Shown here: in pieces, positions 610 through 58,728 of the stretch
Position numbering within the stretch: position 1 is the stretch's first letter
How the letters are laid out: every line of letters begins with the position of its first letter
Assembly (NCBI GenBank): GCA_964453605.1
Contig: CAYVOI010000001.1
Span: forward strand, 166,276-230,275
Origin: an uncultured Gammaproteobacteria bacterium
GTDB taxonomy: Bacteria; Patescibacteriota; Patescibacteriia; Veblenbacterales; UBA10138
DNA length: 64,000 bases
Reading direction: 5' to 3'
The notes under the pieces: generated by a model
Seen by the model: the letters and a program-made list of their open reading frames with translations, nothing else
The model's database searches: none
What the model was told of the DNA's origin: nothing
Translations under genes and position numbers: made by a program

Positions 610-3600
610 ATGAAAATGAGAATTTTGTTGAGCATAGTCTTAGCTGGTTTGCTGTTTATAAGCTCTAGCCCAGCCTGGGCTCAGCTGGGTGGGGTAACAC
701 CACCAGTAGAACCAGCGCCAGTTTCAACTCCGGCCGAGCCAACAGTGGTAACGCCGCCAGCTGATACAGTCACCACTCCTACTGAACCAGTTACCCAAAT
801 CGTCACTCCGCCAGCCGACACCACGGCGCCGGTAATTTCTGGCGTAGCCAACCTCTCGCTCGCCGAGCACGATGCCACGATTGTGTGGACCACTGATGAG
901 TTGGCTGTTTCGACACTTGAGTATGGCACGAGCGCAAGTTACGGGCAGCAGGCCACCTTAGGCGTCAGTGCGCTGCTCGCGCACACCGCAGTTCTTACTG
1001 GTCTTAGTTCGGGCACCACCTACTACTACTGTATTCACGCCGCCGACTTAGCAGGTAACGCCGCCAACTCTTGTGGCCATACGTTCACCACTGCTGCGCA
1101 AACTGTTGTTCTCGACACCACGCCGCCCGACGTTACGCTGGTAACCGTGTCGCCGGTCACTGCCACAGGAGCAACCATTACCTTCACCACCAGTGAAGTA
1201 GGGAATGCACGAGTTGAATACGGAACAACTGCTGGCTATGGACAATCGACGCCGCTCGATACCGACCTTGCGCTCTCGCACAGCGTAACACTTAGTGGTC
1301 TCACGCCGAACACGCTGTACCATTACCGAATTATTACGAGTGATGAAATTGGGAACGAGAACATAACTCCCGACGAAACATTTACCACCACTACCCTGGG
1401 CGCACAAGCCAATGTTGGTTCTGCTGATACCACGCCCCCGGTTATTTCGGGCGTGGGTACGGTTACCCTCGGGCTCACCGACGCTACCATTGTTTGGGAA
1501 ACGAATGAGCTTTCCATTTCCACACTTGAGTACGGCACCACGCCAAACTACGGCTCGCACGCTACGCTTCCCTTAAGCGCACTGCTTGCACACAGCGCGA
1601 CCTTAACTGGCCTTGCCGCCAGCACAACGTACTACTACTGCATTCACGCCACCGATATCGCCGGAAATTCGACCACCTCGTGTCCGCACTCCTTCACTAC
1701 CCAGGCTACTAGCTCAGGGGGGTATGAAGCTATGCCGAATGTGCCCGTTACGCCACCCCTACAACCGGTCGAGCCGCCCCAACTCCCACAAACTCCTACG
1801 CCCGAGGTGCCTGGCTCTGGCGGGCAACTAGCGACTGTCACTATTACTGCGGTTGAAGCCAGTACTGTGAGTCAGACCGAGGTAACCATCACCTGGCATA
1901 CGGATGTGCCAGCCGATTCGCAAGTGTTCTATGGTGACAGTGAAAATCTAGGTAGTGCTAGTGAACTAAGCTTGACCCTTACCACCTCACACTCGGTTAC
2001 ACTTTCTGGCCTTACACCGAATACGAACTATGTGTTCCGCGTACAATCGAAACCAGTTGGGGCCCTCACTGCTACCACCCCCGGCTACTACGAGTTTACC
2101 ACCTTAAGCCACGAGGTACCGATTGTGGCGCCAGCTAACATTATAGCCGTTTCAGCTAGTGGAATTACCGCTACCAGCGCCACCATTACCTGGTTAACTG
2201 ACAAAGCTGCCACAGCGCACGTGGAGTACGGCATTTCGCCAGGCTATGGTGTTGTGTCCACGTCCAACCTAACACTCGCGACATCTCACGCCATAACTCT
2301 GACCGACCTGGAGCCCGCTACCGCCTACCATTTCCGCGTGAGATCGGTTGACGAGGCAGAGAATGAAACATTTTCGGAAGATTATACGTTTACCACTGCT
2401 GTCGCACAGTCTGGTTCCTCTGGGGGTAGCAGTGCGCTCAGCACCCCGGCCGCTATTACCGGATTAAGTGTTGGGGGATACGACAACGCCTCGGTAGAAC
2501 TTGTGTGGCACACTGAGAGCGCTAACGCCGACGTAGCCGCGCTCTACGATATTCGCTATAGTACTTCTCCCATTACTGCCGCAAGTTTCGAGAACGCTTC
2601 CCCTGCCCAAGCCACGCCAATTTACTACGGTGATGTAAGTCCACAGGGCACCACGCGCGCCTACATTGTGGCGGGGCTAGAGCCAAACACTATGTATTAT
2701 TTTGCGCTTACGTCGAAGCATGAGGCGAGCGCGTACTCCGATATATCAAACGTAGTTTCAATTACTACCAATAACACGAGCGTAGATACAGGAGCAGGAG
2801 AAGCTACGCCTGGTGTAGGGTCTAGTGCAGTGGGTGGTGGTAGCAGTGCTGGTGGTGGGGCTCTTGGTGGCTCAGTCAGTACACCGTACGGTGATGGCTC
2901 TGGCGGTACGTCCAGCGGGAGCTTTGAACCAACCATGGTAAAAGCCGAACCGGTTGACGGACAAATTGTTTTTTCCTGGCGTAACCCTGGAGAGCAGAAC
3001 TTCGTGCGTACGGTAATTGTGCGTAAAGTAGGTGGGTACCCATCATCGCCGGCCGACGGCACAACTATTTACGAAGGCCGCGGTGCCACCTACGCCGATA
3101 CCGTCCTTACGAATGGTGTAACGTACTTCTACGCGCTGTACTCCTATAACCACAGTAAAATCTACTCAAAAGGGCTATTGGTTTCCTTGGCGCCCAAGGC
3201 TGACATCAGGCAAGTACAGTTCAATGAAGGCGGAACACTGACCACCGTTGGCCCCGTATTCCATTTTGTCCGCAGCTGGAAACGGGGTGACAAGAACATC
3301 GAGATAGAACACTTGCAGGAGCTGTTGGTGGCTGATCGCGATTCATACCCCGAGCAGTACATCACCGGCTACTTCGGGGCACTCACCGAGGCAGCGCTCA
3401 GGCGTTTTCAGAAAAAGCACGGCCTCCCACAAACGGGAATTGTCGACGCCGCTACACAGAAGGAGCTGAATACTGTATCGCAGTCAGAAACCAGGTTGAA
3501 TATTCCCACCGACCTGGTGGTGTTTACTACCGATCTCAAGTTTGGGGATAGGGGCGAGGCGGTGAAAGATTTGCAACAGTACCTTATCTACGAAGGTAGT

Positions 3601-8895: not shown

Positions 8896-8909
8896 ACGTG
8901 TACAGAGGT

Positions 8910-8945
8910 AACAAAACATCCCGCTGGCCGGCGGGATGTTTTGTT
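8910..8945. terminator. bidirectional terminator hairpin between convergent genes
   Basis: AACAAAACATCCCGC-tggccg-GCGGGATGTTTTGTT, 15-bp stem. Confidence 0.6.
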
Positions 8946-8962
8946 AAGCCTAATGTAAAGAC

Positions 8963-12953: not shown

Positions 12954-14816
12954 ATGTGGTTTTGGGTTAGCCGCCATCGTGTACTTGGGTGGCTTGGTTT
13001 GGCAGTGTTGGTTATGGCTCTAGCTGGTGGGGCGTCGGTTGCTTACGTTACCGCAGCCTACCAGAGTAGGGTGCTGCCGCGGGTTCACGTGGGCGCGCTG
13101 GATCTCAGTGGTTTAACCCGTGATCAAGCTGAACGGCAGCTGCAGCAAGCCTGGGATAGGGTTACCTCAGCTGGTATACCGGTGAAGGCTGGGCCCTACG
13201 AGCTCACGCTCACGCCGATTGTGAGCTCGCCTACTGACCCTGACCTCACCTACGAGCTGGTGCACTTTGACGCGGCACGTAATGCCGAGCGTGCCTTTGC
13301 GCTGGGGCATAAGGGGCAGTGGTGGCAGCGCTGGTTCATGCCGCTTATTGCCCTGGCGCGTAAACCCATGCTTAAGCCTGAGTTTGAGATTAACGCCGAT
13401 CAGGTGGCAACGTACCTGAGGGAGAACTTGCCGCAGCTGGAGCAGCCACCCCACCCCGCCCGTATTGCTATTGATGATTTTGGAAACTTAAGCGCACTGC
13501 CCGAGGCACCTGGGTTGGCCATTGATGTGGCCGGTTTTGCTCGTGAGCTTGAGGGTGCACTTACCCCCCTGCGCGCGCCCCTTGAGGCACTGGAGGTGCA
13601 GCTCACCTTAGTCAAGCCGCAGCTCACTGAAGCCGAGGTGCTAGCCAAGCTTCCTGAAGTTCGCCAGCTCATGCAGCCTAACGAGTTGGTGTTTACCTTT
13701 GAGCAGACCACCTGGCACGCGTCCGCCAGAACCTGGCAGCGCTGGCTCGAGGTGCGGCCGGCGGAAGGTGGCCTTGGCGTTGGGCTAAGTGAGCAGGCGG
13801 CGGCTGAGTTTTTTACCGCCATTAGTGAGCAGGTGAACCAACCTACTCAGGACGCTCGGGTAGAAGTTGCCGAGGGTAGGGTAGCGACCTTTACGCCAAG
13901 CCGCCAAGGCCGCACGGTTGATGTAGCGGCTACCCTAGCCTCTGCTGAAGCCTTGCTCAAAACTGGCCAGTTCGCACCGTTGCCGCTCACGGTGCGAACT
14001 ACCGAGCCCACTATTACCACCGCTGATGCCAATAGCTTAGGCATTACCGAAATAATCGGCGTTGGTGTCTCCAATTTTGCCCGTAGCCCTAAGAACCGGC
14101 GCGCCAACATTCGTACCGGGGCAGCTAAGCTCAATGGTGTCATTATAAAGCCCGACGAGGAGTTTTCACTTGTTAAAACGTTAGGCGATATCAACCAGGA
14201 CGCTGGCTACCTGCCCGAGCTGGTTATCAAAGGGGACAAAACCATTCCTGAGTTTGGCGGCGGGCTGTGCCAAATAGGCACCACCACCTTCCGGGCGGCC
14301 CTGGCCACCGGCCTGCCTATCTTAGAGCGCCGTAACCACTCGTACCGTGTGCCGTACTACGAGCCCGCCGGCACCGACGCCACTATCTACGACCCCAAGC
14401 CCGACCTGAGGTTTAAGAACGACACGGGCCATGCCATACTCATTCAAACCTCTATTACAGGGGATACCCTCACGTTCGAATTCTGGGGTACCGCTGACGG
14501 CCGCACCGTGGAGCAGACAAAACCCCTGCTCTCTAACTTTGTGCATCCCGACCCGTCGAAGCTGGTTCAAACTGAAGATCTGCCCGTTGGCACCAAGAAG
14601 TGTACGGAGAAAGCTCATGTAGGGGCTGACGCCAAGTTCACCTACACCGTAACCTATGCGGACGGCCATGTAGAGAGCCAGGTGTTCAAGAGCCACTACG
14701 TGCCGTGGCAGGAGGTGTGCCTTATCGGCGTGCCCAAAGGCACTCTGTCGCCCACGCCCGCTGGTGGGCCAGAGGTGTTGCCTTCCGCTGACACCTCGGG
14801 GGCCATAGGGAACTAG
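12954..14816 (+). CDS. VanW-family protein (N-terminal TM anchor, PG-binding-like region, C-terminal VanW domain)
   Basis: GGGLCQIGTTTFRAALATGLPILERRNHSYRVPYYEP motif of VanW domain. Confidence 0.8.
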   Translation: MWFWVSRHRVLGWLGLAVLVMALAGGASVAYVTAAYQSRVLPRVHVGALDLSGLTRDQAERQLQQAWDRVTSAGIPVKAGPYELTLTPIVSSPTDPDLTYELVHFDAARNAERAFALGHKGQWWQRWFMPLIALARKPMLKPEFEINADQVATYLRENLPQLEQPPHPARIAIDDFGNLSALPEAPGLAIDVAGFARELEGALTPLRAPLEALEVQLTLVKPQLTEAEVLAKLPEVRQLMQPNELVFTFEQTTWHASARTWQRWLEVRPAEGGLGVGLSEQAAAEFFTAISEQVNQPTQDARVEVAEGRVATFTPSRQGRTVDVAATLASAEALLKTGQFAPLPLTVRTTEPTITTADANSLGITEIIGVGVSNFARSPKNRRANIRTGAAKLNGVIIKPDEEFSLVKTLGDINQDAGYLPELVIKGDKTIPEFGGGLCQIGTTTFRAALATGLPILERRNHSYRVPYYEPAGTDATIYDPKPDLRFKNDTGHAILIQTSITGDTLTFEFWGTADGRTVEQTKPLLSNFVHPDPSKLVQTEDLPVGTKKCTEKAHVGADAKFTYTVTYADGHVESQVFKSHYVPWQEVCLIGVPKGTLSPTPAGGPEVLPSADTSGAIGN

Positions 14817-15677: not shown

Positions 15678-15781
15678 CTAGTGTTTCGCCCATAGGCAAG
15701 GGTACGAAACATGCCAGCTTAGCACAGGGGCCGAACCTTGTCAAGGCCCATTGGTTAGTACGTTAAAAGGTAAAAATAATA

Positions 15782-15811
15782 GAGGCTACTCGCAATATTG
15801 CGAGTAGCCTC
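15782..15811 (-). terminator. perfect 14-bp-arm palindromic terminator downstream of minus-strand 312-aa gene
   Basis: GAGGCTACTCGCAA-ta-TTGCGAGTAGCCTC; T-run follows on minus strand (complement of AAAAATAAT). Confidence 0.7.
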
Positions 15812-15886
15812 TTAAGTTGCGAACCCTAGACCCAAGCCGCCTTGGGCGGAACACAAGGTTCAATTATTCGAACATCAAGGTACAGA

Positions 15887-34401: not shown

Positions 34402-35763
34402 ATGTCTGGTATTAAAGCCACGGTTCGTAAAGTTATACCCAAGTGGGGCTTAGGCCTCTATCATGCAGGTTATGCGTTTATTGCTGCAGCACGTTACGGG
34501 TTTCCCGGGCGGCGTTTAGTTGTGGTTGGCATCACTGGTACTAAAGGGAAGTCGACCACCTGTGCAATGGTGTGGCATATTTTACGTTCGGCTGGTTACA
34601 AAACCGGCCTTATCTCAACGGCGCAACTTTCGAGTGGCGGCGAGGCTAGAATTAGTGACCTAAAGATGACCATGCCCTCGCCGTTTTGGTTGCAGGGGTT
34701 TTTGCGAGACATGGTCCTGGCGGGCTGCACGCATGCAGTTGTCGAAACTTCTTCCGAGGGCTTAGCCCAGTGGCGCAGTTTAGGGATTAACTACCGTGTA
34801 GCAGTGTTCACAAACTTGGCCCCTGAGCACTTGGAAGCACATGGCAGCTATGCCGCCTACCGGGCAGCTAAGGGCAAACTCTTCCGCTTAGTAGGGGGGT
34901 CTGGTGGCACGAATGTAGTAAACCTCGACGATGCTGAGGCCAGGTACTTTCTGCAGTTTCCTACGCAGTCACGTTATGGTTACACATTACACGACGCACA
35001 CCCTGATGGTTTGACTAAAACATTCGCTGCTCAGGTGCAAGAGGTGACACCACGGCAGGCCCGGTTTACGTTTGGTGTTATACCAGTTGAGCTGTCCGTA
35101 GGTGGTGAGTTCAATGTGTACAATGCCCTGGCTGCTCTGGCTGCAGCACAAGCTGTTGGTGTCCCGCTAGAAAAATCAGCTGCAGCACTTGCAACTTTTT
35201 CTGGTACACCTGGGCGTTTGGAGTTTGTAACTTCTGAACCGTTTAACGTGGTAGTGGACTACGCCCACACACCAGAGTCGCTCGAGGCGGTATACTGTAC
35301 CCTCAAGCCGTCGACCGAACCTACGCCAAATCACTACCTGTCAAATTTGTCCGGCCGGACAAATTTGACAGGGCTTAACGGCCGGTCCCGTTTGATTGCA
35401 GTGTTAGGCTCTTGCGGTGGCGGGCGCGATAAGGCTAAACGCGAGCCGCTCGGGAAGTTGGCTGGGTACTACGCTGATCTGATAGTAGTGACAGACGAAG
35501 ATCCCTACGATGAAGATCCATTAAGCATCATGCAGTCCGTGGCTACGGGTGTCAGAGCGGCCGGAAAAAAAGAAGGAGAAAATTTTTGGATTGTGCCAGA
35601 GCGTAAGGAGGCAATCCGCCGGGCTATGTCACTTGCTCGAGCAGGGGATACGGTGGTCATAACCGGCAAAGGCGCCGAGCAGTGGCTGTGCGTTGCAGGT
35701 AACAAAAAAATTCCCTGGGACGATCGCCAGGTGGTACGTGAGGAGTTAGTTAAAGCTTCCTAG
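34402..35763 (+). CDS. murE: Mur ligase family protein (MurE-like UDP-N-acetylmuramoyl-tripeptide synthetase) with short N-terminal extension and internal insertion
   Basis: VVGITGTKGKSTT P-loop, DYAHTPESLEAV, GSCGGGRDKAKRE motifs; ~15-aa insertion between DYAHTP and GxCGGxRD motifs coincides with palindrome. Confidence 0.75.
   Translation: MSGIKATVRKVIPKWGLGLYHAGYAFIAAARYGFPGRRLVVVGITGTKGKSTTCAMVWHILRSAGYKTGLISTAQLSSGGEARISDLKMTMPSPFWLQGFLRDMVLAGCTHAVVETSSEGLAQWRSLGINYRVAVFTNLAPEHLEAHGSYAAYRAAKGKLFRLVGGSGGTNVVNLDDAEARYFLQFPTQSRYGYTLHDAHPDGLTKTFAAQVQEVTPRQARFTFGVIPVELSVGGEFNVYNALAALAAAQAVGVPLEKSAAALATFSGTPGRLEFVTSEPFNVVVDYAHTPESLEAVYCTLKPSTEPTPNHYLSNLSGRTNLTGLNGRSRLIAVLGSCGGGRDKAKREPLGKLAGYYADLIVVTDEDPYDEDPLSIMQSVATGVRAAGKKEGENFWIVPERKEAIRRAMSLARAGDTVVITGKGAEQWLCVAGNKKIPWDDRQVVREELVKAS
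35337..35372. repeat. perfect 36-bp palindrome (18-bp arms, no spacer) inside Mur ligase coding sequence
   Basis: CCTGTCAAATTTGTCCGG|CCGGACAAATTTGACAGG read directly; encodes in-frame YLSNLSGRTNLTGL. Confidence 0.9.
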
Positions 35764-35778
35764 GACTACAACTGCACC

Positions 35779-36801
35779 ATGATTCATATTTTATCGTTGC
35801 TCTGGAACCTGCGCCCTCTAGCGGCTGCCCTAGTGGTGGTAGTGGTAGATTTTGGTATGGTCTGTTTGCTCATGTGTTTAGAGGGTCGTCCGCCCTGGCA
35901 GCGCACGCTTTACAAAACGTTTGTCTATAATGATACGGTGTTTATCCCGCTTTACATTGCTATGGCTGTTGTTGTCATGCAGCCTGTGAAGGCAGCCTCT
36001 ACGTTTTACACTTTTCCTCGATGGCACATGGGGCTCCTGGTGGTAGGCTTTGTCGTTTCCTTCCTCATTGAGTACATTGCCGTCAAACGTGGTCAGTTCA
36101 CAGTGAGCCAAGAGTTAAGCCCTTCTAAGCTTTGGCATACTTTTATCTTTGCAATTATATTTTATTGGTCGCTGAGTTCACTAGTCCTAGTAGCGGTAAT
36201 CCACCGTCCGTTGTGGGCGATGGGCCTTATTGCGCTATCGTTCCTAGGTTTTGTTTATACGTGCTACCTAGACCTTATACTACCCTGGCCCAAGGACGCA
36301 CACCTAGAAGGGACCTATATACCCTGGAAGTGGCAAGTTAGGGGACAACAAGAAATCGCCCAAGACAGCCGGGAGGTAATACGACAAAATTTGCACCAAG
36401 ATGAAGATACCTATAGGGGTGTAGTTATTGAAGAGTCGCTTCAAAGCAAAGATATACTTCGAAAGTTGAAGATTGTCTCCACTAAAGTGGAACAGGTGAC
36501 TGAGAAACACCATACGCCTTGGTTGCAACAGTGGACGCTACACGCCATTGAAGTACCTAGTAGCCAGGCCGAGGGGGTTGCTGCGACGTTGAGCAAAGTC
36601 CTCGACTACAGCCATGGTGGCGCTTGGTATGCTGATTTTAAGAATACTACTCATCACTACATAATTTTTCTAGACAAAGTTTTTTCTATTGATAGGCAGA
36701 GCAAACAACAGTACGACGAGGCTAAGCGCTATGGTATGAGTTTAGGCATACCGGAGTACCAAGTTGATTTTCATCCCGAGGTTAAAACTTGGGAGAGGTA
36801 G
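35779..36801 (+). CDS. polytopic membrane protein with cytoplasmic C-terminal domain, unknown function
   Basis: 5-6 predicted TM helices then soluble 150-aa tail. Confidence 0.5.
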   Translation: MIHILSLLWNLRPLAAALVVVVVDFGMVCLLMCLEGRPPWQRTLYKTFVYNDTVFIPLYIAMAVVVMQPVKAASTFYTFPRWHMGLLVVGFVVSFLIEYIAVKRGQFTVSQELSPSKLWHTFIFAIIFYWSLSSLVLVAVIHRPLWAMGLIALSFLGFVYTCYLDLILPWPKDAHLEGTYIPWKWQVRGQQEIAQDSREVIRQNLHQDEDTYRGVVIEESLQSKDILRKLKIVSTKVEQVTEKHHTPWLQQWTLHAIEVPSSQAEGVAATLSKVLDYSHGGAWYADFKNTTHHYIIFLDKVFSIDRQSKQQYDEAKRYGMSLGIPEYQVDFHPEVKTWER

Positions 36802-36817
36802 TGTTACGCTTTGCAGT

Positions 36818-37357
36818 ATGCCAGAGCAACCCACTCAGATAGATGCTTTAGCTCAAGTGCTCTGGGATTACAATCACCTTGAGCAGCCTATTAAGCCGGC
36901 TGATTGTATTTTTGTGCTCGGTAGTCATGATTTACGTGTAGCTAGGCGAGGTGCAGAGTTATTTTTACAGGGTTATGCTCCTAGGATTATTTTTTCTGGC
37001 GGTTTTGGTAGGTTGACTCGAATTACTAAAAAACTTTTAGCAGAGAATCATATTACGCTACGCACCGCTATCGTGGTACAAAAACCATATATGCTTAGGC
37101 GCGCTTACGCGGCACTGCGTAAGCAATGGCCTGAGCTGGAGGTGATGATGACTGCTCCCGCAATTACATATCAAGAATACCCCGATGCATTTACATCTCG
37201 TGGGCGACTCATACATGTACTAGTTGGTGATACCCAACGCCTTAGGTTATATGCTGAGCGTGGGTTACAAATACCACAAGAAATACCGGATGCGGTTTGG
37301 GATGCTTACTCTGAGCTCGTTAAGCTGGGCTATAATAAACACCTAGTTGTTACCTAG
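36818..37357 (+). CDS. YdcF/ElyC/SanA (DUF218) family protein
   Basis: Start at ATG 36818; ADCIFVLGSHDLRVARRGAELFLQGYAPRIIFSGGFG core. Confidence 0.7.
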   Translation: MPEQPTQIDALAQVLWDYNHLEQPIKPADCIFVLGSHDLRVARRGAELFLQGYAPRIIFSGGFGRLTRITKKLLAENHITLRTAIVVQKPYMLRRAYAALRKQWPELEVMMTAPAITYQEYPDAFTSRGRLIHVLVGDTQRLRLYAERGLQIPQEIPDAVWDAYSELVKLGYNKHLVVT

Positions 37358-37536: not shown

Positions 37537-37681
37537 CAATATACTTTGTTTTGTTACCTGTAAGCTAACTTTAGCCCTTAGCTTGGCGCACGCCTGCATG
37601 CGTCCCATTGTTCTTGCTTGAGCTTTGCAAGAATTAGACATCTCGTCCCCAAGAGTCCCATATGGGGAAGAGCTATTTTTT

Positions 37682-40600
37682 ATGTCTGCCAAATTAATTA
37701 GCACTGCTACCTCGCCACTTAACGAGCGTAAATCCTTTACACCAATAAAGGATACTATTCCCTTGCCTGACCTGATTGAGGTTCAGAAGGCCTCGTACAA
37801 GTGGTTTTTTGATGAAGGCTTAAAAGAGCTGTTCGACGAAATTTCGCCGATTCGTGATTTTATCGGCCGGGACCTCGAGCTCTACTTTTTGGATTACTAC
37901 TTGGATGAGCCAAAGTTTGACGAGGTGACGGCTCGTGTGAAGAACACCAGCTTCGAAGCTGCGCTCCGCGTGAAGACCAGGTTGGTCAATAAGAAGACTG
38001 GTGAAATTAAAGAGCAGCAGGTGTACCTCGGCGACTTCCCGATCATGACCCCGAGGGGTACGTTTGTGGTGAATGGTATTGAGCGCGCGGTAGTTTCGCA
38101 GCTCATTCGCTCGGCGGGTGTGTTCTTTACCTCGGAGTTCCTGCGCGGCCGGAGGTACTACGGCGCAAAGATAATCCCGAACCGCGGCGCCTGGTTGGAA
38201 TTTGAAACTGATTTGAACCACGTGCTGTGGGTGAAGATAGACCGTAAGCGCAAGGTGGCGGTGACCTCACTGCTCCGTGCTTTTGGCTACAGCTCAGACG
38301 CCGACATCAAACCACTGTTCACTGATGTGGATACTAGCCCTGAGGTGCAGTACATAGCCGCCACGCTCGCCAAAGACACGGCTAAGGACGAAGCTGAGGG
38401 GTTGATTGAGGTATACAAGCGCATTCGCCCTGGCGACCTGGCTACGGTAGACAACGCCAAGCAGCTCATCCACAACATGTTCTTCAACTTCGCGCGCTAC
38501 GACTTTGGCCGGGTAGGCCGCTACAAACTGAACCAGCGCTTTGGTTTTAAGCTGGAGAACAGCAAGGAGACCAGGGTCTTACGGCCAGAGGACTTGGTCA
38601 TGATTGTGAAGGAGATTATTCGCCTCAACAACGCCCAGGCCGAGCCAGACGACATTGACCACCTGGGAAACCGCCGCGTACGCGCGGTAGGCGAGCTGGT
38701 GCAGAACAAGTTCCGCGTCGGGTTGGCGCGCTTAGAGCGTATTATCAAGGACCGCATGTCGACCCTAGACATTTCGACTTTGACGCCAAACCAACTCGTG
38801 AATGCGCGCCCTATCATCGGGGCTATTAAAGAGTTCTTTATGAGCTCGCAGCTTTCGCAGTTCATGGATCAAACCAACCCGTTGGCTGAACTCGAGCACA
38901 AGCGTAGGCTTAGCGCTATGGGCCCTGGTGGTCTTTCGCGCGAACGCGCCGGGTTCGACGTTCGCGACGTTCACCGCACCCACTATGGCCGCATTTGCCC
39001 CATTGCTACGCCAGAAGGTCCAAACATCGGTTTGGTTGGTCACCTAGCTTCTTACGCCCGGGTAAACAGCTACGGCTTTATTGAAACACCGTTCCGGCCA
39101 GTAGTGCACGATGTAGCCAACGACGGCAAGGCCGCGGTTGGTGAAAAGTTGAGGCAAGACGTTACCGACTCCTCGGGCAAGGTTTTGGGTAAGCAGGGGG
39201 AGAGTGTGAACGCTTCACTAGCCCAGGCGCTTAAAGCCAGTGGCGAGAAGACCGTGCCAGTGGTGCCGCACGTGCTGGACGAGGTGGTGTGGCTCGACGC
39301 GTTTGAGGAAGAGCGCAACGTAACTACGGCCGCCACCACTTCGCTTGATGAGAAGGGCTACTTCTTGACTGAGCGTGCTGAAATTCGTCTCCACGGCGAG
39401 CCGACTATTGACGTAGTGGCAAAAATTGACTACATGGACGTGTCTCCTAAGCAGATTGTGTCGGTGACCACGTCGCTCATTCCGTTCCTGGAGCACGACG
39501 ACGCCGTGCGTGCGCTGATGGGCACCAACATGCAACGTCAGGCTGTGCCGTGCATTAAGCCGCAAGCGCCGGTGGTTGGTACCGGTGTGGAGGGTAAGGC
39601 AGCGCAAGACTCAGGCCAGGTGCTGGTGGCTGAGCAGAGCGGTGAAGTGGTAGCGGTGCAGGCTGACCGGATTGAGGTGAAAGACGACAACGGTAAAGTG
39701 CATGTCTACAATTTAGGAAAATTCGTACGCTCCAACGCTTCGACTTGTATGAACCACAAGCCGATTGTGGCCAAAGGACAACACGTGAAGAAAGGTGACG
39801 TGTTGGCTGATGGTGCCGCGACCCAGGTAGGGGAGCTGGCGTTGGGGCAGAACGTTTTAGTTGCCTACTTGCCGTGGGAAGGCGGTAACTACGAAGACGC
39901 GGTGCTCATTTCGGAACGCCTGGTGAAGGACGACCGCTACACCTCTATCCACATCGAGGACTACACTATCGACGTTCGCGACACCAAGCTTGGGCCTGAG
40001 GTGGTGACCCGCGACATTCCGAACGTAGGTGAGGAAAAGCTCAAAGACCTGGACGAGGGTGGCATTGTCCGTATTGGCGCCGAGGTCTCCTCGGGTGACA
40101 TATTGGTCGGGAAAATTACGCCAAAAGGTGAAACCGAGCTCTCAGCTGAGGAAAAGCTGCTCCGCGCCATTTTCGGTGAAAAAGCTAAGGATGTTCGGGA
40201 CTCCTCGCTCTACCTGGAGCACGGTGAGCACGGCAAGGTGGTAGGCATCAAAATTTTTTCACGCGAGAACGGCGACCGCTTGCCCTCTGGTGTTATCCAA
40301 TCTATTCAAGTTTCTATTGCGCAGCTTAGAAAAGTGCAGGTAGGCGACAAAATGGCTGGCCGCCATGGTAACAAAGGTGTTATTTCGAAGATCGTGCCCA
40401 TTGAGGATATGCCCTTCTTGGCTGATGGCACGCCAGTCGACATTATTTTGAACCCCTTAGGTGTGGCCTCGCGTATGAACATCGGGCAGATTCTGGAAAC
40501 GCACTTGGGGCTGGCGGCCTGGACACTAGGCTACCGTGTGGCCACGCCAGTTTTGGACGGTGTGCCCGAGACCACCATTCGCTCTGAGCTCAAGAAGGCA

Positions 40601-41080
40601 GGGTTCCCTGAGACTGGTAAGCTGAAGCTGTACCACGGCCGTACCGGTGAGCCGTTCGACGAGCCGGTGACCGTTGGTGTTACCTACATGCTGAAGCTGA
40701 ACCACTTGGTGGAGGACAAAATCCACCAGCGTTCTATTGGTCCGTACTCACTGGTAACGCAGCAGCCCCTTGGCGGCAAGGCGCAGTTCGGTGGTCAGCG
40801 CTTTGGTGAAATGGAGGTGTGGGCGCTCGAAGCCTACGGCGCGGCACATACGCTGCAGGAAATTTTGACCATTAAGTCTGATGACGTCCCTGGCCGCTCG
40901 AAAGCCTATGAATCCATTATTAAAGGCGAAGCTATTAAGAAGCTTAACGTGCCTGAGTCGTTCAACGTGCTCATTCGTGAACTCAAAGGCCTAGGGCTTG
41001 ATGCCGAACTCTTGAAGGGTGAGCAGGTGGTGCCTATAGACCAGCCCGAGCGACCAAGGGCTTCAGAGTCAGCGAGCTAA
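37682..41080 (+). CDS. rpoB: DNA-directed RNA polymerase subunit beta
   Basis: Start at ATG 37682 ([12 protein letters not shown]...); conserved RpoB blocks throughout. Confidence 0.97.
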
Positions 41081-45074: not shown

Positions 45075-45097
45075 TTTGGGAGCCTGGAAGTTATAAA

Positions 45098-45127
45098 CCC
45101 CACGGGTGGCCACCCGTGGGGTTTTGG
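45098..45127 (+). terminator. rho-independent terminator after rpoC
   Basis: CCCCACGGGTGG-CCACCCGTGGGG followed by TTTTGG. Confidence 0.8.
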
Positions 45128-55986: not shown

Positions 55987-56020
55987 TAAAAAATAGAGCC
56001 GACAACGAATTGTCGGCTCT
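55987..56020 (-). terminator. terminator hairpin downstream of minus-strand 122-aa gene
   Basis: AGAGCCGACAA-cgaa-TTGTCGGCTCT; T-run on minus strand. Confidence 0.6.
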
Positions 56021-56034
56021 TGGATTGTCTAAAC

Positions 56035-56403
56035 CTACCATCTTCTTTCGATATAGACCGAGCCGCTGCGCCTGTGCGTGTTCACCTCAATATAGGCTTT
56101 GAGCTGCAGCTCAGGCATTCTCTCAGGAGATACTGTGGCCTCGATCTCGAAGTTGTCCTTGTTGATTTTTGAGCTGTGTATATCTTTAAGTATCACCACC
56201 CGACCCTTGCCGAGACCCATTTGTTGGTGACGGATGGCCTCTTCACCAGTGACGTATTGGGGCTCTATGGTAAACCACACCCGTTCTTGGATCAGTATTT
56301 GGGGGTACCCAGAGGCGATGAGAAGTTCCATTTTTGATGGGCCACTAATTGTCCAAAAACAGAAATGGGTCTTCAGCAGTTCCTCGTGCTTCGTAGTTGC
56401 CAT
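56035..56403 (-). CDS. hypothetical protein (122 aa)
   Basis: Start at ATG 56403 with SD AGAGGGG 8 nt upstream; dedicated terminator; no recognised domain. Confidence 0.45.
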   Translation of the reverse strand: MATTKHEELLKTHFCFWTISGPSKMELLIASGYPQILIQERVWFTIEPQYVTGEEAIRHQQMGLGKGRVVILKDIHSSKINKDNFEIEATVSPERMPELQLKAYIEVNTHRRSGSVYIERRW

Positions 56404-56621
56404 GACGACAACCCCTCTCTTTGGTTTACAGCGCTTTGGGGGCGCTTTCCCCGTTATCCGCCCGGGGCGGACCACCTAACCATAACGGCTAGGAATTCAT
56501 TAACCAATGTTTTTGGTTAACACTTATTTGTATACCAAATCGCTAATGCTGTCAAGCCCTAAACACTAAACCTAAAGTGGCAGCTATCGTTAGGTAGTGT
56601 TGCTTGTTGTTTTTATAGACT

Positions 56622-56653
56622 GGGTTTTTATGTCCAGCTGGACATAAAAACCC
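56622..56653. repeat. perfect 32-bp palindrome (16-bp arms) in AT-rich intergenic region
   Basis: GGGTTTTTATGTCCAG|CTGGACATAAAAACCC. Confidence 0.9.
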
Positions 56654-56797
56654 AACCAGGGCTGCTCCTCAGGTGAGGGCAGGATTAGTCTTCCAGGTAG
56701 TGGACGGTAGGGCCTATTACGTCGCCGTCGTGTTTTGTTGAGTATAGGAATCTTTCGTGCGAAAGGTTCCATGGTGGTTCTGTAGAGCATTTGGTAT

Positions 56798-56827
56798 TTG
56801 ACAAAAGTCGTCGGGGGGGGGTAGAGT
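56798..56827 (+). promoter_or_regulatory. candidate promoter TTGACA-18-TAGAGT whose spacer contains a G9 homopolymer (56813..56821)
   Basis: tTTGACAaaagtcgtcGGGGGGGGGTAGAGTagg, 35 nt upstream of ATG 56862. Confidence 0.45.
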
Positions 56828-56861
56828 AGGACTGGTCATAATTATTAACTGATAACCATAT

Positions 56862-57569
56862 ATGGATAGGGGAGAACTTGATTTAAATCGAGAAGACGAA
56901 GCCTATAAAGAACTATTGAAAAAAGCCAGTCTACTAATAGATGGGCATTTTGACAACCCCACATTTTTTAGTTATGAGCAGAAAGTTACACAATGTGAAC
57001 CTATACCCAATCAACCCGATTACAATTTAATTACGGCCGTAATTAATGACCGGGGGACATCATCTGCCATTGAAGACATTGGTTTTTTTATTTTAGGTAA
57101 CGATGGCACTCTTTTAACGGAAACGCCAGACCTGATTAGTGCAAAAGAAAAAAGTCTAAATATAAAGCTTGATAAAAGTAAAGAGATGCTACCAGGACCA
57201 GTTGCTCGGGCGACGGTACACCGCAGCGTGGACTCAGGCTCATTTGGGTCCGTTGATTACAATAATAAGAGTTATAAAGTCAGTTATGCGTTTACCGATA
57301 GCGGCACTCTGCTTATAAGAAGTAAGTTGGCTAGAGAGGGACAGGAAACAATTATACCCGTTACCGATAGGGATGTAATGAATGTCGAGGATAGGTCTGA
57401 GCATGAGTACAGTGTCAGCGAGGATACCGAAGAGATTACTGAAGAGTTGAATTTTGATTTACAAAAGCTGTATCTACACCATAAGCGAACCATTAGACGT
57501 CCCGGTACAAAAGATGTAGTTCGAGATCTATCGGCCAGTCTAGTAGAGGTTAAAGAGTCGGGAAGTTAA
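56862..57569 (+). CDS. hypothetical protein (ORFan) in AT-rich islet
   Basis: 235 aa, acidic, no domain recognised; local AT-richness. Confidence 0.5.
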   Translation: MDRGELDLNREDEAYKELLKKASLLIDGHFDNPTFFSYEQKVTQCEPIPNQPDYNLITAVINDRGTSSAIEDIGFFILGNDGTLLTETPDLISAKEKSLNIKLDKSKEMLPGPVARATVHRSVDSGSFGSVDYNNKSYKVSYAFTDSGTLLIRSKLAREGQETIIPVTDRDVMNVEDRSEHEYSVSEDTEEITEELNFDLQKLYLHHKRTIRRPGTKDVVRDLSASLVEVKESGS

Positions 57570-57666
57570 GCCAAGCTCCGAAAAATTATCGCATGTGCAG
57601 GTTTTAGTCGAAAATATTGATTTTAGTCTACGTAGTGACACATAGGTGAGGAACACGCGAGCTGTT

Positions 57667-58728
57667 TTAGGTGCTGAATCTAAAGTGGCAAATGTCGCCG
57701 TCGTGCACCACGTAGTCTTTGCCTTCCAGCCGGAGCTTGCCAGCTTCCCGCGCGCCGCTTTCGCCACCGGCAGTTACAAAATCTGCGTAGGCTATTACCT
57801 CAGCACGAATAAAACCCTGTTCAAAGTCGGTGTGAATAACACCAGCGGCTTGGGGTGCTTTGGTGCCCGCTGTTATAGTCCAAGCGCGTGATTCCTCCGG
57901 CCCGGTGGTGAAGTACGTTATGAGGTTAAGCAGTTTGTAGCTGGCGTGGATAAGTTTGTCGAGCCCGCTCTCTTGAAGCCCAAGATCTTTGAGCATGTCG
58001 CGGGCCTCGTTAGGCGCAAGGTCAGCCAGTTCAGCCTCGAGCTTGGCGGAAATTTGAATGTTAGGGAGTAGGGAGTAGTCAGTAGCGAGTAGGTTTTCGT
58101 CAGAGTTTATAACGTAGAGTAACGGCTTGGCTGTTAGGAGTTGTAGCTCGCGCACGAGTTCTGCTTCTTCCTCGTTCAGTTCTAGGGTTCGTGCAGGCTT
58201 GCCCTGGTTCAGGTGTTGGGCCGTTCGTTCCAGCGCAGCTATTTGTTTGCCAACAGTTTTATCTTGTCCGGTTTTAAGCTTGGGCCGGAGGCTCTGGAGG
58301 CGTTTTTGCACGGTGCTTAAGTCCGCCATGGCGAGCTCCAGGTTTATAACTTCAGCGTCCCCCGTGGGGTCTACCTTGTTCGCCACATGGATAATGTTGG
58401 GGTCCTTAAAGGCTCGCACCACTTGGACAATAGCATCCACCTCGCGAATGTTGCTGAGGAATTGGTTCCCCAAACCTTCACCTTGGTGGGCATTTTTCAC
58501 TAAACCAGCAATGTCCACAAACTCTATGGTGGTGGGAATAGTTTTGGCTGATTTAGACAGCTCGGTGAGTTTAGCTAGCCGCTCGTCCGGCACCTCCACC
58601 ACCCCGACGTTAGGGTCTATGGTGGCAAAGGGGTAGTTCTCAATCACTACCTGTTTGCGGGTTAGAGCCTTGAACAGGGTCGACTTGCCAACGTTGGGCA
58701 GGCCCACAATACCAACTTGGAATGACAT
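57667..58728 (-). CDS. ychF: ribosome-binding ATPase YchF (Obg-family GTPase)
   Basis: Start at ATG 58728 (MSFQVGIVGLPNVGKSTLFKALT...); TGS domain at C-terminus. Confidence 0.9.
   Translation of the reverse strand: MSFQVGIVGLPNVGKSTLFKALTRKQVVIENYPFATIDPNVGVVEVPDERLAKLTELSKSAKTIPTTIEFVDIAGLVKNAHQGEGLGNQFLSNIREVDAIVQVVRAFKDPNIIHVANKVDPTGDAEVINLELAMADLSTVQKRLQSLRPKLKTGQDKTVGKQIAALERTAQHLNQGKPARTLELNEEEAELVRELQLLTAKPLLYVINSDENLLATDYSLLPNIQISAKLEAELADLAPNEARDMLKDLGLQESGLDKLIHASYKLLNLITYFTTGPEESRAWTITAGTKAPQAAGVIHTDFEQGFIRAEVIAYADFVTAGGESGAREAGKLRLEGKDYVVHDGDICHFRFST

Follow-up and report, generated by a model that had tools for sequence, protein, structure and literature searches.

A perfect palindrome translated within a patescibacterial murE gene shares its architecture with dyads that bracket PaaX-like genes

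Two described systems come closest to the element reported here. In the REP/RAYT system of Proteobacteria (repetitive extragenic palindromes and REP-associated tyrosine transposases; REPIN), palindromes of about 35 bp are specific to the lineage of an associated gene that is bracketed by copies of them, and solo copies lie elsewhere. The RAYT protein is an HUH/Y1 (IS200-like) transposase, and a genome holds tens to hundreds of dispersed, mostly intergenic REP copies. Rickettsia palindromic elements (RPEs) are selfish elements of about 100-150 bp that occur in many copies per genome and are inserted in frame in protein-coding genes. Here we describe a perfect 36-bp palindrome inside a murE-type gene of a member of the Patescibacteria (Candidate Phyla Radiation, CPR), in a 64,000-nucleotide stretch of contig CAYVOI010000001.1 (assembly GCA_964453605.1; hereafter the window), and compare it with its counterpart in the nearest relative and with dyads found around genes for PaaX-like proteins in other CPR loci. 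Loci are given as L numbers, proteins as P numbers, and feature positions are collected in Table 1.

The host open reading frame (ORF) contains the Pfam domains Mur_ligase_M and Mur_ligase_C and has thousands of homologs, many of them named MurE at source. By its homologs, the window belongs to Patescibacteria, close to the lineages named Veblenbacteria and Kerfeldbacteria, and the database entry of the protein is from an NCBI contig of 876,493 bp. The palindrome (35337-35372, CCTGTCAAATTTGTCCGG·CCGGACAAATTTGACAGG, the dot marking the symmetry centre here and below) consists of two 18-nt arms that are 100% complementary and meet without a spacer. The flanking bases, A at 35336 and G at 35373, are unpaired, so that its full extent is 36 bp. 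Its first base is the third of codon 312 and its last base the second of codon 324; it encodes (Y)LSNLSGRTNLT(G) between the motifs DYAHTP and GSCGGGRD. Direct reading of the sequence thus confirmed what the initial annotation had reported, a spacer-less perfect inverted repeat of 36 bp lying wholly within the murE-like coding sequence (CDS). Its view that the palindrome is too long to be a chance product also held: by our own calculation (64000 x 4^-18), about 1e-6 perfect 36-bp palindromes are expected in 64 kb, and palindromes with arms of at least 10 nt, of which the window has five, were absent from ten mononucleotide shuffles. Among the window palindromes of at least 30 bp, the one in murE is the only one inside a gene.

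The palindrome is part of a longer insertion, which we mapped with a protein alignment of 27 sequences (A1) and a codon-level comparison. In A1, the long insertion after DYAHTPESLEAVY.TL is found only in the window protein and its nearest relative, P0002 (71% identical), and is absent from 25 of the 26 other sequences, including P0003 (69-72% identical). It comprises 20-23 aa (60-69 bp), and the palindrome supplies 12 of the 23 codons. The initial annotation had predicted an insertion of about 15 aa between DYAHTP and GxCGGxRD; its existence and place are borne out by the orthologs, and its size is to be corrected to 23 aa relative to the closest insert-free ortholog. The distance from DYAH to GGGRD is typically 33-35 aa in 76 CPR MurE sequences, 58 aa in the window protein, 53 aa in P0002 and 40-48 aa in a few lineages, so the segment is a hypervariable loop. 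In the AlphaFold2 model (mean predicted local distance difference test score, pLDDT, of 86), residues 302-330 form a coil between a helix (291-301) and a strand (331-336), with pLDDT below 50 at residues 314-326, which correspond to the palindrome-encoded peptide. The palindrome is lodged in what the model predicts to be a disordered surface loop, and this loop would tolerate the twelve palindrome-encoded codons. Scans of genome and metagenome contigs for closer insertion-bearing relatives gave matches of at most 53% identity, and a focused 68-aa protein search for such relatives returned nothing useful. Another insertion, unrelated to this one and about 33 aa long (RPRLEDDNLIGTKADPERVERVEGYATADFVKSE), occurs in a CPR MurE of A1 (P0028), where it occupies a different loop ahead of DYAHT.

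The DNA encoding P0002 (L001, with L002 and L003 as identical copies in independent assemblies from different samples) has a palindrome of its own at the same codons and in the same phase, with the frame intact (L001 10921-10956, TGTGTCAGATTTCCTCGG·CCGAGGAAATCTGACACA). This palindrome is likewise perfect over 36 bp. The arms of the two copies differ at positions 1, 2, 8, 13, 14 and 15, and each of these changes is mirrored in the opposite arm. The arm identity (12/18) equals the nucleotide identity of murE (67%; 43% at third codon positions), and the orthologs are 71% identical in MurE and 90.5% in RpoB. The symmetry of the palindrome is actively maintained despite this near-saturating divergence, because independently evolving arms would long ago have lost their complementarity. 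The encoded peptide has drifted from LSNLSGRTNLTG to VSDFLGRGNLTQ, with 7 of 12 residues identical. As the peptide has diverged and the DNA symmetry is perfect, the constraint acts on the DNA or its structure and not on the protein. The initial annotation had considered that orthologs might keep the same peptide on non-palindromic DNA; we found the opposite.

A search for long perfect palindromes covered about 160 other CPR murE loci, some 1.6 Mb in total. Two of the palindromes, of 36 and 34 bp (TATATCACATTCAGACGG·CCGTC... and ATATCATATTGAGACGG·CCGTC...), are in L006 (identical to L085), where they flank a 182-aa gene situated just upstream of murE and encoded on the opposite strand. The product is PaaX-like, with a winged helix and a Cas2-like PaaX_M domain (PF20803). 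In L013, a different 36-bp palindrome (ATACCCACTTCTCTCCGA·TCGG...) lies on either side of its PaaX-like gene. We examined eight further independent PaaX-like loci (L165, L167, L168, L170, L171, L183, L184 and L185), and in nine of the ten loci the gene is bracketed by similar dyads (L006, L013, L165, L167, L168, L170, L171, L183 and L185); L184 has the upstream dyad only. The dyads are located 20-130 bp before the start codon and 22-57 bp after the stop codon, and in L171 the order is palindrome, 144-aa gene, palindrome, PaaX-like gene, palindrome. Dyads of one and the same locus are alike. Between loci the outer half-sites differ with the protein lineage, and the centre is usually CGR·YCG, a type of centre also found in L013, L184 and L185. 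A length of 36 bp occurs at L006a, both L013 sites, L170b and L171b (some with 1-2 mismatches), and the L168 dyads measure 44 and 54 bp. The upstream dyad of L006 spans an 11/12 match to a sigma-70-type promoter (-35 and -10) directed into the PaaX-like gene, which looks like the classical layout of an autorepressor and its operator.

The short PaaX_M family comprises 3,938 representative clusters (50% identity, E<=1e-10), mostly of 170-205 aa. Searches of Pfam, NCBIfam and PADLOC with the PaaX-like CPR proteins matched PaaX_M, winged-helix and Cas2-like models only and gave no transposase-type domain; PADLOC returned nothing beyond Cas2-like partial matches, and a PDB search nothing convincing. 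A literature search found no paper that joins PaaX with Patescibacteria or describes these palindromes, and TTHA0973 was discarded as a lead since it is a TetR-family protein. We also rejected a special link of the PaaX-like cassettes to murE, as two cassettes in about 120 distinct murE loci correspond, by our own estimate, to about one such gene per genome. The L006-type palindromes are identical in seven assemblies and thus give no information on the maintenance of symmetry. Three Logan contigs start or end exactly inside palindromes (L170, 1-24; L171, 1-24 and 1215-1231; L185, 2292-2319). It follows that elements of this kind interrupt assembly by de Bruijn graphs, and that metagenome-assembled genomes built from short reads will contain too few of them or contain them in split form.

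The PaaX-linked sites of the clade formed by L006, L167, L170 and L171 share the architecture NN-TRTCA-N8-CGR·YCG-N8-TGAYA-NN, to which the L165 sites are related, although imperfect and offset by one base. Both murE palindromes, in the window and in L001, fit this architecture exactly, in the same register and with the same length of 36 bp, and the TGTCA half-site of the window has the register of TRTCA in the PaaX-adjoining sites of L006, L167, L170 and L171. In a pattern scan of 1.70 Mb (172 loci and the window), exact matches were found only at six unique sites (window, L001, two in L006, L170 and L171), and L167 fits with one mismatch. The eight motif positions (arm positions 3-7 and 16-18) were set from PaaX-linked sites only, and by our own calculation an 18-nt arm matches them with p ~6e-5. 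All six differences between the window and L001 arms lie off these eight positions (hypergeometric C(10,6)/C(18,6) = 0.011, our own calculation, on six differences). In a ten-site alignment (A2), 92% of the cells are paired, 16 of 18 pairs have changed on both sides, and none of 500 shuffles reached the observed score. Raw arm similarity was set aside as too weak on its own, and the case for a family would instead rest on register, length, centre and selective conservation.

On this evidence, we give a roughly even chance to the following reading. The palindrome in murE would be a solo copy, placed in frame, of the dyad cognate to a PaaX-like protein, and would descend from an ancestor common to this genome and L001; purifying selection would act on its motif, and arm-to-arm correction would keep the remaining positions mirrored. 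A dimer of the PaaX-like protein, encoded elsewhere in the genome, would recognise the outer half-sites and the CGR·YCG centre. The element lies in the MurE loop that joins the helix following DYAHTP to the strand preceding GSCGGGRD. It would already have been present in the common ancestor of the window genome and the L001 lineage, because position, reading phase and 5' flank are shared. The motif positions would have been held constant since then, and the others would have changed in a mirrored way. Template switching at quasi-palindromes has been documented both to give rise to perfect stems and to preserve them by changes that look compensatory (PMC8794818). Intrastrand switching of this kind would transfer a change in one arm to its partner in a single event, which would explain the apparently compensatory differences between the window and L001, as well as the symmetry through central bases that could not pair in a hairpin loop. 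Being a mutational process, however, it predicts no fixed length of 36 bp, no conserved motif and no association with PaaX-like genes. Selection for a hairpin, a cruciform or a symmetric site may add to the mirroring. The weakest link is the effect on the host: a protein bound inside murE could form a roadblock to transcription of the 3' part of the gene and of the downstream genes that run in the same direction, or, equally, the element could be a tolerated passenger without host function. A palindromic mini-element was among the explanations listed by the initial annotation, and a mini-element or cis-site fits best, given the match to the PaaX-linked family of 36-bp dyads; it may have arrived as a mobile insertion or have arisen in place.

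Several observations weigh against a solo copy of a PaaX-linked dyad. The raw identity between the window and L006 arms (10-11 of 18) is reached by 16 of 294 pairs of unrelated palindrome arms, and part of the motif was first noticed from the window sequence itself. The palindrome is single-copy in the window: neither the 18-mer arm, for which the initial annotation had raised the prospect of further copies, nor the family pattern has another match with up to three mismatches, and no dispersed regulon or repeat family emerges there. Neither the 64-kb window nor 15 kb of L001 yielded a PaaX-like ORF (phmmer; 7-sequence profile, E=100), and the cognate protein is therefore assumed, not seen; with no PF20803 gene within about 130 bp, the window site is a solo copy. 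A perfect site of 36 bp is also far longer than typical operators. Some PaaX-adjoining sites are asymmetric in the N8 segments (L183, L185, L165 and L167), so protein binding alone does not explain two perfect murE copies. The family thus does not require perfect symmetry, which speaks for recognition of the outer half-sites and the centre, and the full symmetry of the murE, L006, L013 and L168 sites needs a cause beyond recognition. The inheritance is not straightforward either. RpoB identities are 95.7% between the window and L004, which encodes the insert-free P0003, 90.5% between the window and L001, and 91.3% between L001 and L004. RpoB thus makes L004 the sister of the window, and the history of the element requires a clean loss in L004 or two gains. 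MurE divergence is nearly equal for all three pairs (about 70% identical), and this discordance with RpoB (37625-41080) could reflect faster evolution of murE or an exchange of the murE region.

Two other explanations come next in probability to a PaaX-linked solo copy. The palindrome may be neutral and self-perpetuating, having arisen locally by replication template switching and being kept perfect by the same documented process (PMC8794818), with no trans-acting partner and a coincidental likeness to the motif. We regard this as unlikely. In its favour, both lineages are perfect through the centre, including bases that are unpairable in a hairpin loop, the arms have diverged as much as the gene around them, and motif-less perfect palindromes do occur in other CPR genes (murE of L073, 30 bp; murE of L129, 26 bp; L066; L162); the native CDS just downstream also has a GGCCG (Gly-Arg codons) that could have nucleated a palindrome. 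Such a process does not account for the same length and boundaries in both lineages, for six of six differences avoiding the eight motif positions (p about 0.011), or for the exact match of the murE sites to the independently defined TRTCA (3-7) and CGR (16-18) positions (p about 6e-5). A selfish mini-element similar to REPs or RPEs has, in our estimate, a similarly small chance. It would be a non-autonomous mobile derivative of the cassette of palindrome, PaaX-like gene and palindrome that survived in frame in a permissive loop, of no benefit to the host, and it overlaps with the PaaX-linked reading on family membership and differs from it on origin and function. The bracketing of the gene by lineage-specific palindromes in nine of ten loci, the array in L171, the RPE-like solo copy in a disordered loop of an essential gene, the absence of stop codons in two of the three reading phases of the element and the variable murE-rpoB interval among relatives are all consistent with it. 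Counting against it are the lack of a second copy in 64 kb and, outside the surroundings of PaaX-like genes, of any copy in 1.6 Mb from other CPR loci, the absence of a visible target-site duplication or conserved flanks, an associated protein without a transposase-type domain, the lack of copies beyond chance in 2.9 million viral contigs, and an insertion of 60-69 bp that is longer than the element.

A functional hairpin in the murE mRNA, acting in processing or stability or as a ribosome pause before the C-terminal domain folds, is very unlikely in our view. As RNA, the palindrome is predicted to fold into a strong hairpin (16 bp, 4-nt loop), its 111-nt context has a centroid structure of -29.4 kcal/mol (z-score -3.9), and many changes across the family are double-sided. 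The symmetry nevertheless covers four central bases that an RNA loop would not constrain, both murE copies have Watson-Crick pairs only and no G-U pair, and family members lie on either strand relative to the neighbouring genes. At gathering thresholds, Rfam recovered only three tRNAs in the window, with no family or CRISPR-DR match at the palindrome. An intrinsic terminator of the canonical type was rejected, as the palindrome is followed by GCTTAACGG, which is no U-tract, and was not flagged by the terminator scan. The only nearby match of that scan on the plus strand (35371-35388) is a weak 5-bp stem that starts at the last two bases of the palindrome. Palindromes beyond the k-mer length of the assembler do break de Bruijn assemblies, as the contig ends of L170, L171 and L185 illustrate, and the initial annotation had accordingly listed an assembly or fold-back chimera. 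We can dismiss this almost entirely, because the ortholog has its own diverged and perfect palindrome at the same codons in three independent assemblies from different samples; in addition, the reading frame and the conserved flanks are intact, and seven assemblies agree on the L006-type palindromes.

Other roles were considered and set aside. The right arm contains TTGACA but no -10 element, so a promoter was rejected. A CRISPR repeat was rejected because the element is single-copy, and the repeats of the PaaX-like loci are 640-780 bp apart with genes between them. Four pattern scans of 2.9 million viral contigs gave either nothing or five N8-asymmetric chance matches, which speaks against a phage or mobile origin. 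For a homing or restriction target or a recombination site, both suggested by the initial annotation, we found no direct support.

Compared with REP/RAYT, the PaaX-like gene is likewise bracketed by its own lineage-specific palindromes, and there is a solo copy. The associated protein, however, combines a winged helix with a Cas2-like domain (PF20803) and is not an HUH/Y1 transposase, the murE-type element occurs once in 64 kb and thus seemingly at very low copy number, and it is an intragenic, perfect palindrome without a GTAG-type 5' motif. As in RPEs, palindromic DNA is translated in frame as an extra surface loop at a permissive site without destroying the protein. Unlike RPEs, the murE element has only 36 bp within an insertion of 60-69 bp, is present in one copy in the window, belongs to another phylum, has kept its perfect symmetry through speciation and is associated with one particular protein family. 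The operators of PaaX/GntR-type repressors offer a third comparison: the dyads adjoin the gene of the regulator itself, overlap -35 and -10 in L006 and have half-sites that follow the protein lineage. Operators of this kind are usually far shorter and less perfect than a 36-bp site with 18 paired positions, a second copy lies 3' of the stop codon in nine of ten loci, and the murE site is intragenic. The CPR proteins also differ from canonical PaaX in lacking the C-terminal domain, scoring 33-53 bits against a TIGR02277 cut-off of 264.6. The system described here lacks at least one tested defining feature of each of REP/RAYT, RPEs, intrinsic terminators, CRISPR repeats and canonical PaaX. We read the finding as a protein-linked palindromic cis-element, a known type, that is here translated in frame. 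The mirrored evolution in an essential gene and the dyad architecture around PaaX-like genes appear to be undescribed. More speculatively, and with a small chance of being right, short proteins with a winged helix and PaaX_M could form an undescribed partnership with lineage-specific dyads or hairpins of about 36 bp. Besides flanking the gene, the elements would be able to spread, or to persist, as solo copies, including in-frame copies within essential genes such as murE. This would be a REP/RAYT-like system built on a Cas2 fold, with arm-to-arm correction keeping some copies perfect.

The palindrome in murE is a clean example of an essential CDS in which the DNA has kept its symmetry while the peptide drifted, and offers a natural test of palindrome maintenance. 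To our knowledge, very few regulators are known in Patescibacteria and almost no regulatory sites have been defined experimentally. The PaaX-like link points to a widespread, uncharacterised pairing of a cis-element and a protein in this group, and if it holds, it would provide a route to predicting the binding sites of thousands of PaaX_M proteins. If the solo copies are mobile, they would represent a second translated palindromic element beside the RPEs of Rickettsia, with a different mechanism. On the practical side, the ends of the three Logan contigs indicate that these palindromes disrupt short-read assemblies.

Table 1. Location of the murE palindrome, its host gene and related features. 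Positions without a locus name refer to the window; a dot within a motif marks the symmetry centre.
Feature	Position	Strand	Remarks
Perfect spacer-less palindrome	35337..35372	.	Symmetry centre between 35354 and 35355
Left outer half-site TGTCA (arm positions 3-7)	35339..35343	+	Fits TRTCA; same between window and L001
Centre CGG·CCG	35352..35357	.	Fits CGR·YCG; columns 16, 17, 20 and 21 of alignment A2 invariant
Right outer half-site TGACA	35366..35370	+	Mirror of TGTCA
MurE-type Mur ligase (UDP-MurNAc-tripeptide synthetase family), 453 aa	34402..35763	+	Frame intact; PF08245, PF02875
23-codon insertion, about residues 305-327 (...STEPTPNHYLSNLSGRTNLTGLN...)	~35314..35382	+	Relative to insert-free P0003/L004; edges uncertain by a few codons
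PaaX-like gene (~185 aa) with dyads	L006 1316-1995; L013 5888-6700; L165 3925-4621; L167 1785-2472; L168 2960-3675		
PaaX-like gene (~185 aa) with dyads	L170 1-760; L171 1-1231; L183 1458-2166; L185 about 1430-2319		
Four further spacer-less palindromes, 30-38 bp	8909-8946; 15781-15812; 45095-45124; 56621-56654		All intergenic, all different; 8909-8946 near-perfect (one mismatch)
Perfect palindromes of 24-30 bp in CPR CDS	L073 6544-6573; L129 2442-2467; L066 4928-4953; L162 1372-1395		No TRTCA/CGR motif

Several of the intergenic window palindromes are in terminator-like positions. The one at 8909 lies between convergent genes; the one at 45095 follows directly on rpoC and, with its AAA...TTT ends, resembles a bidirectional terminator. 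Symmetry through the centre is commoner among the window palindromes than hairpin function alone would require. Across the 1.7 Mb, 7 of 35 unique long palindromes are inside long ORFs, and the palindromes in murE of L073 and L129 are at different positions.

The gene after murE encodes a membrane protein common to the window and L001 (74% over 189 aa) and is a NUDIX gene in L004. The murE-rpoB interval (window 35779-37357, L001 11364-11936, L004 1582-2073) is variable and low in GC (45%). In the window, the 340-aa ORF after murE consists of the 190-aa membrane protein shared with L001 and about 150 extra C-terminal residues, and is followed by a DUF218-like ORF.

Two smaller inverted repeats were seen within other window genes. 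A VanW-like peptidoglycan-binding gene (12954-14816) contains a 12-bp perfect stem with an 8-nt loop (AGTTCGCACCGT...ACGGTGCGAACT, 13969-14000); by chance, the window would contain about 0.03 hairpins of this kind. A 20-bp perfect palindrome with a CGG·CCG centre (TTAATTACGG·CCGTAATTAA, 57027-57046) is located in an ORF without Pfam matches (56862-57569), in a region (about 56000-58000) with 46% GC compared with about 55% elsewhere, and could be related to the family in degenerate form or match it by chance.

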